Source of the DNA: a phage
DNA length: 64,000 bases
Sequence record: PZ540767.1
Reading direction: 5' to 3' (one strand)
Both the position numbers and the translations under genes were made by a program. Below are positions 31,018 to 38,597 of this stretch, piece by piece; the first letter of the stretch is position 1; the number at the start of each line of letters is the position of its first letter. Under the pieces are notes generated by a model. It did no database searches and was not told where the DNA came from. It saw only the letters and a list, made by a program, of their open reading frames with translations.

Positions 31018-31758
31018 TTACATGGTAAATGGATCATCACCAGTGGTGGCATTGTCAGATCCTGGGTTGAAACCAGCACCTGCAAAGTTACCACCCGGAG
31101 CACCAGCGTTACCCTGACCAGTCACTTCTTTGAAGCGATCCCATACCTGGCCTTTGTTAGCTTCGAGCCACTTATCTTTGAAAGTAGCGACTTCCTGCTT
31201 ACCACGAATTTCCTGTTCAGTCTTATCGTCTTTACTACGGAAGACTTTTGCAATGGCATTGATCTCACGAGCTTCATTGATCGGCTCATACTGACCATCA
31301 TCGTTGCGTTTCTGCTTGTTCTCTTTAATACGCTGGATAGCGAAGGTGATCGGTTTACCACACAGATCCACCAGCATAGGAACATCAGTCGGAACTTCGG
31401 CTTTCTTCTCGAAGTTATACAGGTTGATGGTTTTGGTTTCTGGTTCCAGTTTAACCAGAGGCTTACCGCAGGCCAGCAGGCAGATCGAGTTTGCTTTCAG
31501 GAAGTTCTTGGTGTACTCGCCTTTATCGTTGACGACTTTACCCTGACCGTTCATGAACCAGATCTGCTCTTTGTAGATGCCGTGATCATCTTCGAATTCG
31601 ATGTTCATGGCTTGAGCTTTGGACTTTTCCGACTTGGTGATGTAAGCCAGTTTGATGATGCCCGGATAGACGTCAGTGTCACGAATGCGCATACCAGTGC
31701 CCAGGGTATCTTTCTCTACTGCTTTTTCTGCATCATAGTTAAAATCAAAATAAGACAT
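31018..31758 (-). CDS. ssb: single-stranded DNA-binding protein
   Basis: 246 aa; C-terminal Gly-rich linker ending in acidic GDDPFTM tail, like bacterial/phage SSB tips; AAGGTAA RBS; N4-like position. Confidence 0.6.
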   Translation of the reverse strand: MSYFDFNYDAEKAVEKDTLGTGMRIRDTDVYPGIIKLAYITKSEKSKAQAMNIEFEDDHGIYKEQIWFMNGQGKVVNDKGEYTKNFLKANSICLLACGKPLVKLEPETKTINLYNFEKKAEVPTDVPMLVDLCGKPITFAIQRIKENKQKRNDDGQYEPINEAREINAIAKVFRSKDDKTEQEIRGKQEVATFKDKWLEANKGQVWDRFKEVTGQGNAGAPGGNFAGAGFNPGSDNATTGDDPFTM

Positions 31759-31759
31759 G

Positions 31760-32290
31760 TTAGTTACCTTTTGTTTCTAGGCCATGGTTCTCATGGAAGC
31801 CTAATTCAATTAATTTCTCAGCCCGGCAGATAGCTGCTTCATTGGCTGTTTTGAAGGTACGTTGCCATACCTTCTTACGGTTCATCGTGATTTCTGCTAC
31901 ATAGCGATCACGACGTTTGCAGTACCAAATACCTTGGTGTCCAGTAATGGTATTGCTGATTGCACCCCTGTTTCGCATATTCTGAAGCATCGTAGTGTCC
32001 TTCAGATTTACTGCCCTGTTGTCATCACGAATATGGTTATCGTGGTCTACGTGCCCTTTAGGCCACTGCCTGTTGTGCATGTAGTAACAGATGATATGCT
32101 CTCCATAGGTAGTGCCGAAGATTGTTATATGGCGGTAGCCGCTAGCCTTGTGGAGACTCCCAGCGCGACTACCGATAACAATTCTCTTATTACAAGACTT
32201 GCTAATCCAAGTAAGATGTCCAGTAAGAGCATCATATTTTAGTACCTTTTCAAGCATTTCAAGGGTGAGATCTTTTTTGGGAATTTTCAT
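31760..32290 (-). CDS. HNH homing endonuclease with AP2-type DNA-binding domain
   Basis: 176 aa; HVDHDNHIRDDNRAVNL HNH motif followed by AP2-like GIWYCKRRDRYVAEI...ANEAAICRAEKL. Confidence 0.7.
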   Translation of the reverse strand: MKIPKKDLTLEMLEKVLKYDALTGHLTWISKSCNKRIVIGSRAGSLHKASGYRHITIFGTTYGEHIICYYMHNRQWPKGHVDHDNHIRDDNRAVNLKDTTMLQNMRNRGAISNTITGHQGIWYCKRRDRYVAEITMNRKKVWQRTFKTANEAAICRAEKLIELGFHENHGLETKGN

Positions 32291-33018
32291 GCGTAATACT
32301 CATGCAAACGGTCTAAGACCAACTGCATGTCATTATCGATGAAGGTTTCCTTGATATCAAATAAGTCCTCTGGGCCACGTAAACGCTCGTTAATGGTGTT
32401 CTTAGTAACCTGGGTCTGGTAAACATGCTTGTACCCGAGCATCTCCTCGCGCTCGTTAATGTGAAGTAACCCGTTCTGGTATTCTTCCAGATCCGTAAGC
32501 TTCACTTTCTTACAGGCAATAACCAGACTGAAGTATGACTCAATGCCCTGGTTCTTCAGTGCCCCTTTAACAGGTACACAGGTTTCACGAACCATGTCAT
32601 CGTTAACTTCATCCTTCGTGTGAGCTAAGAAGATCACGTTCTTGGTAGACGTGGCTACCAGCACCTGCATCAGGTGTTTGAACTGCTGGGCAAATTGGCC
32701 CCATGCAGCTTGGGTATTCGAGCTAGTAAGTACGAGCTGGCTCTCTACCATGTCCATGTAGTACGTCAGTGAATCAACTACAATGGTGTGAATATTCGGC
32801 TGGGTTTCAGCCCACTGAAACGCTTTAGGGAGGATATCCCAACGTGCAATGGTACGTTCCAGGAAACCTGATTTGAACGGCAGCTTTTTACCTGATTCAC
32901 AGTTAAGGTACAGCACACCTTCCGGGTTCTTCAGGTTCTTCAGTGACCGTGATTTACCACTTGCTGATTTACCTACAAGCAGTACAAGGTTGTCATTAAC
33001 GCTGATTTGATCGGACAT
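32287..33018 (-). CDS. P-loop ATPase, probably RecA-like recombination/replication ATPase
   Basis: Walker A GKSASGKS near N-terminus; ATG at 33018 with AGAGGT RBS (ORF track begins earlier at a non-ATG codon). Confidence 0.55.
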   Translation of the reverse strand: MSDQISVNDNLVLLVGKSASGKSRSLKNLKNPEGVLYLNCESGKKLPFKSGFLERTIARWDILPKAFQWAETQPNIHTIVVDSLTYYMDMVESQLVLTSSNTQAAWGQFAQQFKHLMQVLVATSTKNVIFLAHTKDEVNDDMVRETCVPVKGALKNQGIESYFSLVIACKKVKLTDLEEYQNGLLHINEREEMLGYKHVYQTQVTKNTINERLRGPEDLFDIKETFIDNDMQLVLDRLHEYYA

Positions 33019-33087: not shown

Positions 33088-35247
33088 TTACTTAACTTTC
33101 TTGGCAATGGTGAGCATGATGCTGCCATCAATTTCACTCTCGTCCAGCTTACCGGGAAGCTTGTTGTTCAGTTCCTTCACCTGGCTTCTGATACGATCCA
33201 GAGAGAACCCTGCATCTACCAGTACCATGGCATAGTTGAACAGCTGCTTATTACGGTTACCATCACCAGTGTTGTTAAGTACCCAACGTTCCAGATTATC
33301 CAGTTGATGCTGATCAGTAAGCATTTGCTTACGATCCTCGTTCTTACTGGTTTTAGGAATGAAGGGGAGCACATCGAATAGCTGACCATCCGTATACTCA
33401 TAATGCCCTTTATGTGTTAACCATTTCTTAGAACGGTGTGAACACTGGTCATCAGCTTTAAATGGCAAGCCTTCAAGGACGTTGTTATAAAACTCCTTGT
33501 AGTCTTTGGCATCCAGCTTCAGCTCATAGTTAATAGGCAAAATGATACGGAAACGGTTAGTCTCTTCGGTATGTCGTTTAGTGGTGTAATACAAAGCCCT
33601 GTAGTCTTTCAGCAGTAACTTAGCTGTAGACAACTGACAGGTTCCATCCACATCAATAACCAGAAGGTTAAAGCCAGGAATGGCATTCTCTTCATTACGA
33701 TAACCGTTCATCACTTTATGGGTCAGCCAGTGAAGATCAGGCTGATTTACCAGTCTGTGCAGTTGATCGAATGGTACGTCTTTAGGTACGAAACCAGTGG
33801 TTAAATCCTTGCTGTATGACAAGATCATCTCATCAAGGTTAGTTGGTTTCAGAGATTCACCACTCAGGAATAAGATGCCATCAGTGTAGCTTCGCTTCAC
33901 AATGATGTTGTTTTTATAACCATAAGCAATAGCCAGGTTAATCATCTCATCCTTCTGGTTTTTACCACCACGGAAATAAGGCAGATCCTCATCCATGTCA
34001 GCCAAAGTAACGTCTGTGCCTACATCAGCTAAATACTTAGCCAACTTGGCATAGTTACGTTCAGGCGTAAGCAGCTTGGCAAAAGCTTCACCACATTCTT
34101 CAGTAAGCTTAATGGCGTTCTCCAGATGATCCTGAGAAAGCACAGGTGAACCATCTACGAAAGCATAAGCAGCAGCCAACTTCATGCACTTAAAGTAACG
34201 GTTCTCAAGTTCACCCTTTTGGATAGTTTGATACTCGTTTAAGTGTTTGGATTTGGCTTCGCAGTCCAGACGGTACTGCAAGATGTTACGTAGTACTTCG
34301 CGTGGGATAGTGATAGCTTTACGAAGGTTAGAGATATCTGCCAGCTTCTCCAGCTTCTTACCTAGATCGGTAATGAAGGTATCAGCATTGGCATCAAACA
34401 TCTGCTTCATAATGTCATCAGCTGTAATCCCTTCTGGTTTCTTAGCTTTCAGCAGGAAACCAAAGTGACAACGACGTGCATAGCCCATCTCCAGCATGTC
34501 ATACAGACGACGTTCAGTTACATCCCCATCAAACAGCTTGGTTGGAGTACCAAACAACAACATGTTAGTTGGAGTACTACCTACCAGCTTCTCATGGCGA
34601 ACGTTTTCAGCAGACGATTTGATCAGCTTATCTTTTACTAAACCGAGGTCATAGAGTTCCAGGAAAGTATCCAGTACCTCAGTCTGACCTACCAGGTTTG
34701 CACCGATTTCATCAATCTGCAAGTTAACAGCACCTGCATTACCCATAAGCAGTTTATGACGCATCTGCTTAACTGCTGGGGTAGTACCAGAGTCAAAGCT
34801 AAACAGAAGACTGCCTAAGCTTTCAAACTCTTTACGCACCTTCTCCAGCTCATCTTCTGGGTCAACCAGATTAGACGCTGTGGATTTACGTTGAGCACGT
34901 TTCTGAGCAAGCTCAAACATGTTCTGTTCAGCTACTGTAGGGAAAGTTACTTCCAGGAATCGTTCACGGAATCCTGCAAGCAATTCACGTTCGATCAGGC
35001 TGGTGGAATAGCCTTTACCAGTACCTGACGGAGACAGGTTCAGAGCGTAGATATTGATAGGCAGATCGTTACGATCATATCCTTTAATGACTGCTCGCAT
35101 AGACGAGGCCATTACACCCCAGTAGTAAGCCAGAACTACCCTGAAAAAGAGTCGTTCTTCGTTAAGGGTTTTAGCATTGAGAAAATCAACGATCTTCTCA
35201 CTGGTGGGATGATATTTCATCTCACTCACTGGTTTGATGGAGATCAT
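33088..35247 (-). CDS. primase-like replication protein (N4 gp43-like by position)
   Basis: 719 aa; N-terminal P-loop-like SPSGTGKGYS, C-terminal acidic LLVIDVDG motif; AAGGA RBS. Confidence 0.5.
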   Translation of the reverse strand: MISIKPVSEMKYHPTSEKIVDFLNAKTLNEERLFFRVVLAYYWGVMASSMRAVIKGYDRNDLPINIYALNLSPSGTGKGYSTSLIERELLAGFRERFLEVTFPTVAEQNMFELAQKRAQRKSTASNLVDPEDELEKVRKEFESLGSLLFSFDSGTTPAVKQMRHKLLMGNAGAVNLQIDEIGANLVGQTEVLDTFLELYDLGLVKDKLIKSSAENVRHEKLVGSTPTNMLLFGTPTKLFDGDVTERRLYDMLEMGYARRCHFGFLLKAKKPEGITADDIMKQMFDANADTFITDLGKKLEKLADISNLRKAITIPREVLRNILQYRLDCEAKSKHLNEYQTIQKGELENRYFKCMKLAAAYAFVDGSPVLSQDHLENAIKLTEECGEAFAKLLTPERNYAKLAKYLADVGTDVTLADMDEDLPYFRGGKNQKDEMINLAIAYGYKNNIIVKRSYTDGILFLSGESLKPTNLDEMILSYSKDLTTGFVPKDVPFDQLHRLVNQPDLHWLTHKVMNGYRNEENAIPGFNLLVIDVDGTCQLSTAKLLLKDYRALYYTTKRHTEETNRFRIILPINYELKLDAKDYKEFYNNVLEGLPFKADDQCSHRSKKWLTHKGHYEYTDGQLFDVLPFIPKTSKNEDRKQMLTDQHQLDNLERWVLNNTGDGNRNKQLFNYAMVLVDAGFSLDRIRSQVKELNNKLPGKLDESEIDGSIMLTIAKKVK

Positions 35248-35255
35248 ACTTGTCC

Positions 35256-36230
35256 TTATACTTCGAGATGACCAGAACGAATTAGCTCATCTTTTTGTTT
35301 ACAGATTGGAAAGGCTGGGCAGTATGCACAAGCTTTAACTTGACCAGGGTTATGTACGATCATACCCACGTTGCCATCGTCAGCTAGACGCTTATAAGCT
35401 TCAGCCTCAGTGTCAAAGTTTTTGGTTGATCGGGTCATGTTTGCCGGGTTCTTGTAGTACTTCCAGACCGGAGCATCACGCCATAACTCTTCATCGGTAC
35501 ATTCAGGAATGTCTTCGTCTTTGGCCTGTTTATATTTCTCATACAGGGCAATACGACCTTCAACATACTTCTGAGTTTCTTCCAGAGAGAGCAACTGATA
35601 ACGCTTGGTTTCAGTCTTTCGCTGTGGGTAGTTAGGGTTAGCTCTGGCTTGAGCACGTTGCCAGTCAGTAAAGATAAACTGGATAGACATTACATCTTTA
35701 GTAATGATATCCGGGTTAAGCCAGCGATAGATACTACCTTGCAGGGCATAGTCCAGATCCTTACTACCCTTCATATAGCTGAAGGTTGAGGTGGACTTAA
35801 AGTCCTCTAAGGCACCATTACCTACAAAGTCAAACTTACCAGTAACACGGTAACCCATGACTTCTTTCTCAGATCGGATTTCCATATACACTGGGATATC
35901 CCCAGCCTTCAATTCCCATGGTTTAGGGTTCACCTTAACCTTGGCAATCAGATCAGGTGAGTAACCTAGCTTCTCCATAGCTTTAGGGAAGTTTTCCGGT
36001 GACCAAGCCAGCTCAATACCCGAGTGAATAGCTGTACCCATACGAGACGCTACCAGGTCTTCCAGGTCAGCTGTTTGCAGCTCTGGAGGAACACGGGGAG
36101 TCAGTATCAACTGACGAATAGGCTTCAGCAGTTTGGTTGCTGAGAAGGTTCCAGGGATATAATCGTAATGATCAGTAGCCAGGAACACTGCCATAGATAA
36201 TGGGATCTTAGTGTTGTTTGTGTAAATCAT
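35256..36230 (-). CDS. PD-(D/E)xK family nuclease with C-terminal Cys cluster (Cas4/RecB-like)
   Basis: GKFDFVGNGALEDFK resembles a D...E.K nuclease core; C-terminal CAYCPAFPIC cluster; first ATG at 36230 (ORF track begins at a GTG at 36239). Confidence 0.5.
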   Translation of the reverse strand: MIYTNNTKIPLSMAVFLATDHYDYIPGTFSATKLLKPIRQLILTPRVPPELQTADLEDLVASRMGTAIHSGIELAWSPENFPKAMEKLGYSPDLIAKVKVNPKPWELKAGDIPVYMEIRSEKEVMGYRVTGKFDFVGNGALEDFKSTSTFSYMKGSKDLDYALQGSIYRWLNPDIITKDVMSIQFIFTDWQRAQARANPNYPQRKTETKRYQLLSLEETQKYVEGRIALYEKYKQAKDEDIPECTDEELWRDAPVWKYYKNPANMTRSTKNFDTEAEAYKRLADDGNVGMIVHNPGQVKACAYCPAFPICKQKDELIRSGHLEV

Positions 36231-36341
36231 AACAACCACCCAGTAAGGTTTGTGATCAGTTTAGCTACACCAAAGTACATGAAGAAACCTGCTGTAGCTC
36301 CCCAGGCTGCAAATGCTGCAAACACAAAGGTAGACATTAAC

Positions 36342-36809
36342 TTACTTAGCATTGGCTGATTCCTCGCCCCATAAGGCTGCATATGCTGCCAGATCTTCAA
36401 AGTTATCCAGCTTAAATTCACCCTGGTTTGCACGGACAATTTTCAGTAGGACTTGAATGAGCCACCCATCAGCCGGGGTAAGATCCTTACCACGAATCTT
36501 ATTGAACAGCTCAATGACCAGTGGAATGGAACGTTCACCTTCTGCATTATCATAGGTAACTGCACGATCCTCTAAATGCCCAGCAGCAGCCAGTAGTACC
36601 TTGTGGGCACTGACTGTTGTATCTACTGGTTTAGGTTTAAGATCTTCAAGCTGTGCCTTTAGGTCAGTTATAGCTTGCTCATACTTTTTAACCTGGTTTC
36701 CCCAGTAAACTTTTTTATGCTCTGCACAAGACATACCTAAGTAGTTCTTAGCCTCATGCAGACACTTTTCTGCATAAGCAAGAGAGCGTTTTAATGATCT
36801 TTTACTCAT
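36342..36809 (-). CDS. hypothetical protein (about 156 aa)
   Basis: ATG at 36809 with AGGAAA RBS (ORF track begins at a GTG at 36866). Confidence 0.45.
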   Translation of the reverse strand: MSKRSLKRSLAYAEKCLHEAKNYLGMSCAEHKKVYWGNQVKKYEQAITDLKAQLEDLKPKPVDTTVSAHKVLLAAAGHLEDRAVTYDNAEGERSIPLVIELFNKIRGKDLTPADGWLIQVLLKIVRANQGEFKLDNFEDLAAYAALWGEESANAK

Positions 36810-36866: not shown

Positions 36867-38597
36867 TTAAGCCTGACAGCTTAAGCATTCATCCTTAACA
36901 ACCACACCACTTCGTGAGTAGACGTAGTAAACAGACAGGATTTCTTCATCCAGTACACAACGAGTCATCAACTCTGAGATCAGATCTTCTGATCCATCTT
37001 CAGGTACGAAGAAGTTCAGGGACTGACCTTGGCAGATATGTTTCTGACGTAAGCTGGCACGACGTAACAGGACTCGCTGATCCATTTCAAAGGCAGTCTT
37101 AAATACCTGCTTCTCGTGGTCATCAAGCCAGTCAACGTGTTGTACTGAGCCTACATGGTTAATGATATCGTTGATGGTTTCTGCTGAGTACACTCCACGT
37201 TCCTGCATGAGTTTGTAAATCTCAGGCACGATACGACTGAGCTGCCCAGCAGCAGAGCTGGCTTCAAATACCATTCCAGGATCCGGGAACCAGGATTCAG
37301 ATACACCACCCATTAACAGGGCTGTGCTCTTGGTAGGTGCAATGGCTGTACGGTGAGTATTACGTACACCATGACCTTCACACCATTCTGGTTCACCCAT
37401 GACTTCTGCCATCCACTGAGAAGCTTTGAGGCTTTCATCATGGATATGCTTGAAGATCTCTTGGTCGATAAATTGAGCTTCCAGTGACTCGTAGGGAATA
37501 CGCTTCGATTGGAAATAGGTACTGAGTCCCATTACACCTAAGCCAATTGCTCGGCCTTTGATGGTAAAGTCTCGTACTTTTTCTAAGCCCTCAATACCAT
37601 CACTAACTTCGATGAACTCTGAGCACAAGCAGTCCAGGAAAATAGTGGAATAGAATACTGCTTTGCTGGTTTTAATCTTATCCCAGTGAACCAGGTTCAA
37701 TGAGGACAGAATACAGCTATAGGTCAGATCCTTGGATGAATGCAGCATGATTTCGGTACACAGATTGCTTGCCTTAAGCATCAGGTCACGGTCTTTGTAC
37801 ATTGCAGGACGATGGCGGTTAGCCTTGTCTATGAAGTACAGATAACCCTTACCTGTCAGCATTTTGACATGCACAGCATCTTCGAATCGCTGGTTTGCTT
37901 CTGCATCACCAGCTTTCAGTTTCTCAACGAAACTATCTTTAATGATCCAGCCATAGTTCTTACCATTAGGATCGGTCTTCAGTGAGTTAAGGCACTCATA
38001 GAAATCCCCATGCTCGATATCGAGATAGGCACCAACAGAACCACGTCTGTTACCTCCCTGGCTTACCTTGCTGGTACAAGTGAAGAAGTCATCAATAACT
38101 TCCTTAGCACCATTAGCAATGCCACCAGTGCTGATCTTGGCACCACGAGGTCGGATATCCGAGAAGTCTGCTGAAGTACCAAATCCATATTTGGACAGGA
38201 TTGCAGTCTCTCGTAAGGCTGAGTAGAAGCCATCAATGCTATCTGCCACTACCTGCCCAGAGCAGGACACAGGCATACCACGATCGGTTCCTGTATTAGC
38301 CAGTGCTGGTGTAGCGGGTGACAAGATGCCATTCCACATAAGATCGAAGAATGCTTTTTCAAGTTCACCACGATAAAGCTGTGGTACATGACGTGCCAGA
38401 GTGTGTGCAATCTTCTGGTGACGTGCTCTTAATGAGCCTTCACTCTCGACGATGTACTTACTCTTGAACATTTGCCATGCTTGAGTTGTATACCAATCAG
38501 GGAGTAATCCCTGTGCTTGTAACTTCTTACGCTCGGCACTAAGTGCTTCGAACTCAGTAGCGACTGAAGTTTCTACTCCTGTAGGTTTAAACGACAT
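36867..38597 (-). CDS. nrdA: ribonucleotide reductase large subunit
   Basis: 576 aa; NLCTEI active-site region, IAPTKS motif, C-terminal ECLSCQA cysteine pair; AGGAGAG RBS. Confidence 0.85.
   Translation of the reverse strand: MSFKPTGVETSVATEFEALSAERKKLQAQGLLPDWYTTQAWQMFKSKYIVESEGSLRARHQKIAHTLARHVPQLYRGELEKAFFDLMWNGILSPATPALANTGTDRGMPVSCSGQVVADSIDGFYSALRETAILSKYGFGTSADFSDIRPRGAKISTGGIANGAKEVIDDFFTCTSKVSQGGNRRGSVGAYLDIEHGDFYECLNSLKTDPNGKNYGWIIKDSFVEKLKAGDAEANQRFEDAVHVKMLTGKGYLYFIDKANRHRPAMYKDRDLMLKASNLCTEIMLHSSKDLTYSCILSSLNLVHWDKIKTSKAVFYSTIFLDCLCSEFIEVSDGIEGLEKVRDFTIKGRAIGLGVMGLSTYFQSKRIPYESLEAQFIDQEIFKHIHDESLKASQWMAEVMGEPEWCEGHGVRNTHRTAIAPTKSTALLMGGVSESWFPDPGMVFEASSAAGQLSRIVPEIYKLMQERGVYSAETINDIINHVGSVQHVDWLDDHEKQVFKTAFEMDQRVLLRRASLRQKHICQGQSLNFFVPEDGSEDLISELMTRCVLDEEILSVYYVYSRSGVVVKDECLSCQA

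Follow-up and report, generated by a model that had tools for sequence, protein, structure and literature searches.

The exonuclease locus

The 64,000-nucleotide (nt) stretch of phage record PZ540767.1 that we analyzed (the window) belongs to an N4-like phage of Klebsiella, in the Schitoviridae genus Efbeekayvirus, and our subject is a gene at 35256..36230 whose product is a predicted exonuclease of the coliphage N4 gp42 type, here called gp42 as well. This gene and all other features described below lie on the minus strand. The ORF (open reading frame) listing and the sequence give a complete coding sequence (CDS) of 975 nt including the stop, encoding 324 amino acids (aa), with its ATG at 36228-36230 and its TAA at 35256-35258. 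An in-frame GTG is found 9 nt upstream of the ATG; the choice of the ATG matches the homologs and a CDS of 975 nt in the annotation of phage P184. This start codon shares bases with the stop of a small ORF upstream (ATGA), and the ATG of the downstream primase gene comes 8 nt past the TAA, so that these genes look translationally coupled. The small upstream ORF (36227-36439) is hydrophobic, with 70 aa when read from a TTG (41 aa are annotated in phage P184) and no PHROG match; the ATGA overlap in which it ends suggests that its own translation is coupled to that of the exonuclease.

The 6-kb region around the gene is 95-96% identical to phages P184, FBKp27 and others, and the protein is 100% identical to one of Klebsiella phage cp20. 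Identity to gp42 of coliphage N4, which carries the RefSeq label 'exonuclease', is 43%. The family assignment is to PHROG 2139 'exonuclease' (E-value 3.8e-137), with residues 1-323 of the query matching profile positions 2-329 of 330. Homologs were found in 477 phage records, almost all N4-like, 472 of them covering at least 80% of the query; relaxing tblastn to an E-value of 5 in this phage collection gave no weaker tail past the same 477 records and no bridging canonical members. The family is also large outside this collection, with 3752 relatives at E-value ≤ 0.001 in a large protein collection, including thousands of metagenomic proteins, and 3139 in a library of 50%-identity representatives. 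An earlier note on this DNA, made from the letters alone, had placed the gene at the N4-like position of the replication exonuclease, and it does occupy the N4 gp42 slot of the replication module.

Nuclease core and predicted fold

We examined conservation in an alignment of 147 representatives with about 38-55% identity to the query, and in a wider alignment of 77 sequences, including N4 gp42 and two distant relatives (24-27% identity), that reaches down to 24% identity. RecB motifs I, II and III and the QhxxY motif, which have been described as hallmarks of Cas4-type nucleases (PMC4176176), are all present, and they align to the motifs of the Sulfolobus solfataricus Cas4 protein SSO0001 at a profile-profile probability of 93%. 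Motif I is H69-SGI-E73 (36012..36026), with H69 conserved in 147/147 and E73 in 142/147 relatives, and it aligns with LGDILHLGLE of SSO0001. Motifs II and III run from D134, in the segment GKFDF, to D143-F-K145 (35796..35831); D134, D143 and K145 are each found in all 147 sequences. The Q-h-x-x-Y motif, Q164-GSI-Y168 (35727..35741), again has both named residues in 147/147 and aligns with the QxxxY of SSO0001 and of SIRV2 gp19. E117 is likewise conserved, within the same range of 142 to 147 of the 147 relatives. The D...E.K nuclease core that the earlier note had read here is thus present, but the invariant form of motif III is D143-F-K145 (D-x-K), and the preceding E142 is variable, being glutamate in only 40 of the 147. 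In the 77-sequence alignment the catalytic motifs and the cysteines discussed below remain invariant; after addition of N4 gp42 and the two distant relatives 14 invariant columns are left, and four of these are the cysteines.

A second insertion, at residues ~76-112 (about 35895-36005), lies within this region. It comprises about 30-35 residues (AMEKLGY...NPKP) with two short helices and a strand, and is present in the N4-like members and absent from the LE4 and MinM2 relatives, from Cas4 SSO0001 and from SIRV2 gp19.

An AlphaFold2 model built on a 34-sequence alignment has a mean predicted local distance difference test (pLDDT) score of 93.3, a predicted template modeling (pTM) score of 0.86, and no residue with pLDDT below 70. 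The first Foldseek match of this model is 4ic1, the [4Fe-4S] Cas4 protein SSO0001 (E-value 2.5e-6), and Lambda Exo and RecE are also among the structural matches. The ranking by structure-match score is headed by the same protein (12.4, with 185/202 residues aligned), followed by a Cas4-Cas1 fusion (10.6), human EXO5 (9.9), a Type I-C Cas4 (9.6), AdnAB (9.3), MGME1 (9.1), Dna2 (9.0), RecE (8.9) and the zinc-containing DUF3799 protein 3L0A (8.6). We regard the PD-(D/E)XK fold, in its Cas4/RecB branch, as established as far as prediction allows. In a library of viral structures the whole architecture is reproduced by one entry only, a protein of an N4-like Delftia phage (template modeling score, TM, 0.91), and the other viral Cas4-like nucleases have the core alone in common with it (query-normalized TM ≤ 0.48).

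Four conserved cysteines and an inserted mini-domain

Cysteine occurs at only four positions of the protein, C244, C301, C304 and C310. The last three form the triad C301-x2-C304-x5-C310 (35301..35330), a cluster-binding motif of the Cas4/AddB type that had been noticed earlier as CAYCPAFPIC near the C-terminus; the motif is real, at residues 301-310, and its cysteines are conserved in 146/147 (C301), 146/147 (C304) and 145/147 (C310) relatives. The fourth, C244 (35499..35501, in the motif P-x-C-T-D-E-E-L-W), had been overlooked, and it is present in 147/147. Other alignment columns have cysteine in at most 12 of the 147 sequences, none of them at a conserved N-terminal position. In these alignments the conservation of the four cysteines is far beyond chance and equal to that of the catalytic residues. 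Of the two findings that the earlier note named as fatal to its proposal, namely no detectable PD-(D/E)xK fold and cysteines that are not conserved, neither was made.

The triad pattern is found in 146 sequences and has the 2,5 spacing in 144 of them, and the distance from C244 to the triad varies from 53 to 77 residues across the family. LE4 gp62 and the MinM2 nuclease, both distant relatives, also retain C244. A full-length alignment to SIRV2 gp19 pairs the triad C301/C304/C310 with C193/C196/C202 of gp19 and shows an insertion, residues ~237-291, that separates the triad from the last core helix. The triad also aligns with the motif CRYCPARGNC of the DUF2800 protein of Vibrio phage Artemius; in an hhalign comparison of the family with this canonical DUF2800 Cas4-like nuclease (ORF29), the cysteine motif alone aligned.

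In a six-frame scan of the 64-kb window, CAYCPAFPIC was the sole C-x2-C-x5-C match lying wholly within a long ORF. The only other near-match is at the C-terminus of the ribonucleotide reductase large subunit (36867-38597), which ends in ...ECLSCQA; there the match extends past the stop codon. Class Ia ribonucleotide reductases carry a cysteine pair of this kind at their C-terminus.

C244 stands at the start of the insertion, as the proposed fourth metal ligand, and residues 245-300 (35331..35498) form an inserted mini-domain with a strand-strand-helix-strand order, in which W250, K257, Y258, T269, N271, G286 and G289 are conserved. Its elements in the AlphaFold2 model are strands at 255-259 and 270-272, a helix at 275-284 and a strand at 290-294, and structure comparison finds local matches of the mini-domain to small folds with the same order of elements (EEHE) and to zinc-finger-like folds. 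C244 and C301 are the two ends of this inserted domain and so must lie close to each other in space.

A proline at the position of the N-terminal cysteine

The canonical Cas4/AddB layout has one N-terminal and three C-terminal cysteines (PMC4176176, PMC3466216), and these four hold a [4Fe-4S] or [2Fe-2S] cluster known as the 'iron staple' (PMC4176176, PMC3466216, PMC5704561). The gp42 protein has no cysteine before residue 244, and the N-terminal cysteine that defines Cas4 and iron-staple nucleases is therefore absent. The segment S30-R46 (SATKLLKPIRQLILTPR; 36093..36143) is the counterpart of the Cas4 motif '(S/T)xhhxC-P-R', with Pro37 at the position of the first iron-sulfur cysteine. We compared the N-terminal half of the gp42 family by hhalign with two canonical references, SIRV2 gp19, taken from the virus record, and residues 23-144 of SSO0001, taken from a printed alignment (probability 93%, E-value 2.9e-7). 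H62/E66 of SSO0001 paired with H69/E73 of gp42, D99 with D134, the E-x-K motif with D143-x-K145, and QxxxY with Q164..Y168; mutation of that same SSO0001 aspartate (D99A) abolished activity (PMC3466216). The first ligand of SSO0001, Cys32, paired with Pro37 at a posterior of about 0.7, and in the independent full-length alignment Cys31 of SIRV2 gp19 also falls on Pro37. A global-mode hhalign run against gp19, which paired C244 with the first cysteine of the gp19 triad at a probability of 2%, was unreliable and was not used.

Position 37 is proline in 99 of the 147 relatives and serine in 42, and is never a conserved cysteine; the C-P-R of Cas4 reads S-P-R and E-P-R in distant relatives. The simplest reading of these alignments is that the canonical N-terminal ligand has been lost and that C244 may have taken over as fourth ligand. 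The Cas4/AddB-type arrangement that had been proposed for this protein is borne out in the RecB fold, the motifs and the C-terminal triad, but not in the N-terminal cysteine, and the candidate for the fourth ligand comes after the core. Five testable features of the Cas4 family are present in the exonuclease and one defining feature is missing, and we accordingly file it as a variant and not as a plain member. The arrangement had also been thought notable for this phage; it is in fact carried by N4 itself and by essentially the whole family.

Gene neighborhood and likely role

Downstream of the exonuclease gene come an N4 gp43-type DNA primase (33088..35247; PHROG 2135, E-value 0), a Sak4-like single-stranded DNA (ssDNA)-annealing protein of the gp44 type (32287..33018; PHROG 124, E-value 5.5e-48, Pfam AAA_24) and an N4 gp45-type ssDNA-binding protein (SSB) (31018..31758), to which an annotated SSB of phage P184 and one of N4 correspond in position. 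To these we can add synteny counts from 80 related viral contigs, which represent close N4-like loci and in which the denominators are the loci with enough sequence: the primase gene directly adjoins the exonuclease gene in 72/77, and the Sak4-like gene and the SSB gene are downstream in 69/69 and 58/60, respectively. The search for related loci with a diverse alignment yielded close N4-like loci only, which were of use for synteny, and no distant relatives. Two distant family members are found close to genes of unrelated annealing proteins: that of Leptospira phage LE4 is near RecT with one small ORF between, and that of Synechococcus phage MinM2 is near Erf with one MazG gene between.

Two further neighbors are recorded here as observations in their own right. 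Between the SSB gene and the Sak4-like gene lies a 176-aa ORF (31760-32290) with an HNH_3 endonuclease domain (E-value 6e-8) and a sub-threshold AP2 DNA-binding domain, a combination typical of phage homing endonucleases; phage P184 has only a 321-nt HNH-like ORF in the same gap, and the element seems variable among close relatives. Just upstream of the exonuclease operon, 36342-36809 encodes a 155-aa protein matching Pfam DUF6378 (E-value 1.7e-8) and PHROG 474, whose label 'phosphofructokinase' has been copied into several phage records and looks dubious for a protein of 155 aa.

Those Cas4 enzymes that have been characterized degrade ssDNA 5'->3' as metal-dependent exonucleases, and they have been proposed to generate recombinogenic 3' tails (PMC3466216, PMC4176176). 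N4 needs its SSB for replication and recombination, and this SSB is related to the one that stimulates annealing by Sak4 (PMC5928155); the N4-type DNA polymerase is without a 5'-3' exonuclease domain (PMC2784036). In the literature that was covered, most subscription journals being outside it, we found no paper stating which N4 gene encodes the classical 5'-3' exonuclease. Given the module shared with the primase, the Sak4-like protein and the SSB, and the distant relatives near RecT or Erf, the role that this analysis makes most likely for gp42 is that of a 5'-3' resection exonuclease for phage recombination and replication. It would degrade DNA 5'->3' from ends or nicks and leave 3' single-stranded tails, which would be coated by the gp45-type SSB and annealed by the gp44-type Sak4-like protein. 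Such resection might serve replication that depends on recombination, the formation of concatemers, or the repair of the phage's linear, terminally redundant genome, and gp42 would supply the 5'-3' exonuclease activity missing from the phage DNA polymerase. In roseophage vB_DshP-R7L a gp42-like exonuclease (gp60) and a gp45-like SSB were identified by sodium dodecyl sulfate-polyacrylamide gel electrophoresis (SDS-PAGE) of purified particles and grouped as 'structural proteins' (PMC11934525); they may be there by carry-over of abundant replication proteins or by true packaging.

A different role, which does not exclude resection, is that of a mainly replicative nuclease removing RNA primers or 5' flaps at Okazaki fragments. 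This is the job of the structural relatives Dna2, EXO5 and MGME1, and we consider the idea unlikely as the main role while giving it more room than any of the other alternatives treated here. The LE4 and MinM2 relatives have RecT or Erf nearby and no primase beside them, and the Sak4-like protein and the SSB are always in the same module as gp42. Moreover, N4 replication reportedly uses the 5'-3' exonuclease of the host Pol I together with ligase for lagging-strand maturation, which counts against this role.

The proposed metal center

We propose that the four cysteines bind one metal center. The likeliest is a [4Fe-4S] or [2Fe-2S] cluster like those of Cas4, AddB, Dna2 and EXO5, and the center would clamp the base of the inserted mini-domain rather than act as a staple between the N- and C-terminal halves of the nuclease. 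We favor iron-sulfur, and think it rather likely, because it is iron-sulfur enzymes that have the C-x2-C-x5-C signature and that come first among the structural matches. The foremost competitor is a structural zinc ion in the same four-cysteine site, with a nuclease that otherwise works alike. 3L0A, which has a comparable four-cysteine site, was crystallized with zinc; its authors caution that the zinc is possibly an over-expression artifact (PMC3466216). The spacing of the gp42 triad is the signature of the iron-staple nucleases (PMC3466216, PMC4176176), and the best structural matches of the model are iron-sulfur proteins, so that zinc seems to us an unlikely occupant, if one to be taken seriously. 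That the site holds neither iron-sulfur nor zinc we think improbable.

Still further down the scale is the suggestion that there is no metal at the cysteines at all, their conservation being due to disulfides or another cause and the C-terminal region being merely a packing element. A metal is indeed invisible in a sequence or an AlphaFold2 model. Against this, the protein is cytoplasmic, all four cysteines are invariant and their 2,5 spacing fixed down to 24% identity, their conservation is on a par with that of the catalytic residues, and the triad aligns with proven iron-sulfur ligands; we give the suggestion hardly any weight.

Several points weigh against our overall interpretation. The metal content, polarity and substrate of gp42 are all inferred, and in the literature covered (again with most subscription journals outside) we found no paper on the metal center or biochemistry of N4 gp42 or of any family member. 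The closeness of C244 to the triad is argued from the ends of the insertion and from co-invariance. Some Cas4 proteins can cleave without the cluster (PMC4176176). Pfam PF12705 PDDEXK_1, the Cas4/AddB family, scores 20.2 bits where the gathering threshold is 22 (E-value 6e-4), over residues 104-311 only; a precomputed PF12705 match is present in a few close homologs (P0036, P0083, P0084 and P0100). No NCBIfam model of any kind matches the exonuclease. Searching PDB sequences with the protein by itself and with two profiles of the family yielded no meaningful match, so the link to Cas4 comes from the fold and from profile-profile comparison only. Finally, the primase gene stands between the exonuclease gene and the Sak4-like gene at 69/69 loci, and the two are thus paired by module and not by strict adjacency.

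With these points taken into account, we think it probable that this gene encodes the gp42-family exonuclease of an N4-like Klebsiella phage, a single-domain RecB/Cas4-like PD-(D/E)XK nuclease whose cysteines bind one metal center and which acts in recombination and replication. A bolder version, which we put forward tentatively and with less conviction than the iron-sulfur assignment itself, is that the gp42 family might represent a distinct topological class of iron-sulfur nuclease, in which the ancestral N-terminal cysteine would have been lost, with a cluster completed by the cysteine that opens the inserted mini-domain and clamping a highly conserved basic/aromatic module (WKYYKNP...RSTKNF). 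This module could dock DNA ends, or the Sak4-like or SSB partners.

The naming of the family calls for comment. The ortholog has been deposited under at least six names (for example in MZ348421.1, OP829055.1 and MG592610.1), among them hypothetical protein, gp42, exonuclease, PD-(D/E)XK nuclease superfamily protein, putative RecB family exonuclease and CRISPR-associated exonuclease, the last of which is misleading. That gp42 is a phage 'Cas4' that manipulates host CRISPR adaptation by feeding it host-derived spacers, as proposed for Campylobacter phages, might be read from a weak second PHROG match (phrog_1706 'CRISPR/Cas system associated', E-value 8.7e-5), from the deposition of the Kosakonia phage Kc283 homolog under that last name, and from the link between phage Cas4-like proteins and spacer acquisition in PMC4283603, insofar as it is cited in PMC5704561; we nevertheless reject such a CRISPR-decoy role on genomic context as extremely improbable, since hundreds of lytic phages, irrespective of host, carry this as a core gene with a fixed place in the replication/recombination module, its neighbors are the primase, the Sak4-like protein, the SSB and ribonucleotide reductase with no cas1 or cas2, and the canonical Cas4 cysteine layout, a Pfam score above threshold and any NCBIfam match are missing.

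Significance

The family, the nuclease prediction and the RecB/Cas4 affinity are already in public annotation, and our result refines that annotation and is no discovery. What appears to be new is the loss of the canonical ligand and its replacement by a cysteine heading an inserted mini-domain, a modest point that a specialist may find neat and not surprising. A core gene that is now inconsistently annotated gains a precise, testable label. If the site does hold iron-sulfur, the triad of the iron staple can keep its place while the ligand set shifts along the chain, which would bear on the purpose of the cluster, be it structure, DNA-end binding or redox sensing. On the bolder reading, the long-known but unassigned 5'-3' exonuclease of N4 would be an iron-sulfur enzyme, and replication and recombination throughout the Schitoviridae would rely on Isc/Suf cluster assembly by the host and on the status of iron and oxygen, with relevance to the Klebsiella, Pseudomonas and E. 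coli phages of this family used in therapy. Should the site be a zinc site or purely structural, gp42 would be an ordinary member of a known nuclease superfamily.

Comparison with known systems

The closest known system is N4 gp42 itself (PHROG 2139, a Schitoviridae core gene), which has the same length, the same four cysteines and catalytic residues, and homology over its full length, and whose gene likewise precedes those for the gp43 primase, the gp44 Sak4-like protein and the gp45 SSB. The two loci differ upstream, where the Klebsiella phage has the DUF6378 gene and ribonucleotide reductase and N4 has gp40/gp41.

Cas4 SSO0001 (4IC1), a [4Fe-4S] 5'->3' ssDNA exonuclease, has no detectable sequence-level match to gp42. 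Relative to it, gp42 has extra segments at residues 1-25 and the insertions at ~76-112 and ~237-291, the latter with C244; the first ligand Cys32 of SSO0001 is Pro37 in gp42, and the gp42 gene is without CRISPR linkage. In AddB/AdnB, Dna2 and EXO5 the first ligand is upstream of the core and the cluster staples the domain shut, whereas in gp42 all four cysteines are downstream of the core; AddB, AdnB and Dna2 moreover have a helicase as fusion or partner, whereas gp42 stands alone as a protein of 37 kDa. The DUF3799 protein EUBREC_2131 (3L0A) has a RecE-like fold and a four-cysteine site with zinc in the crystal, and no homology to gp42 at the sequence level; its cysteines have been described as having the same layout as those of AddB and Cas4 (PMC3466216).

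With Lambda Exo/Beta and RecE/RecT, the likeness is in the proposed logic of a 5'-3' exonuclease encoded beside an ssDNA-annealing protein. For a toroidal trimer as in two-component phage recombinases we have no evidence in gp42. Compared with Lambda Exo and RecE, gp42 belongs to a different branch of the PD-(D/E)XK nucleases, with a predicted cysteine metal site, and where those systems use Beta or RecT, its proposed partner is a RecA-like Sak4 protein together with a dedicated SSB.

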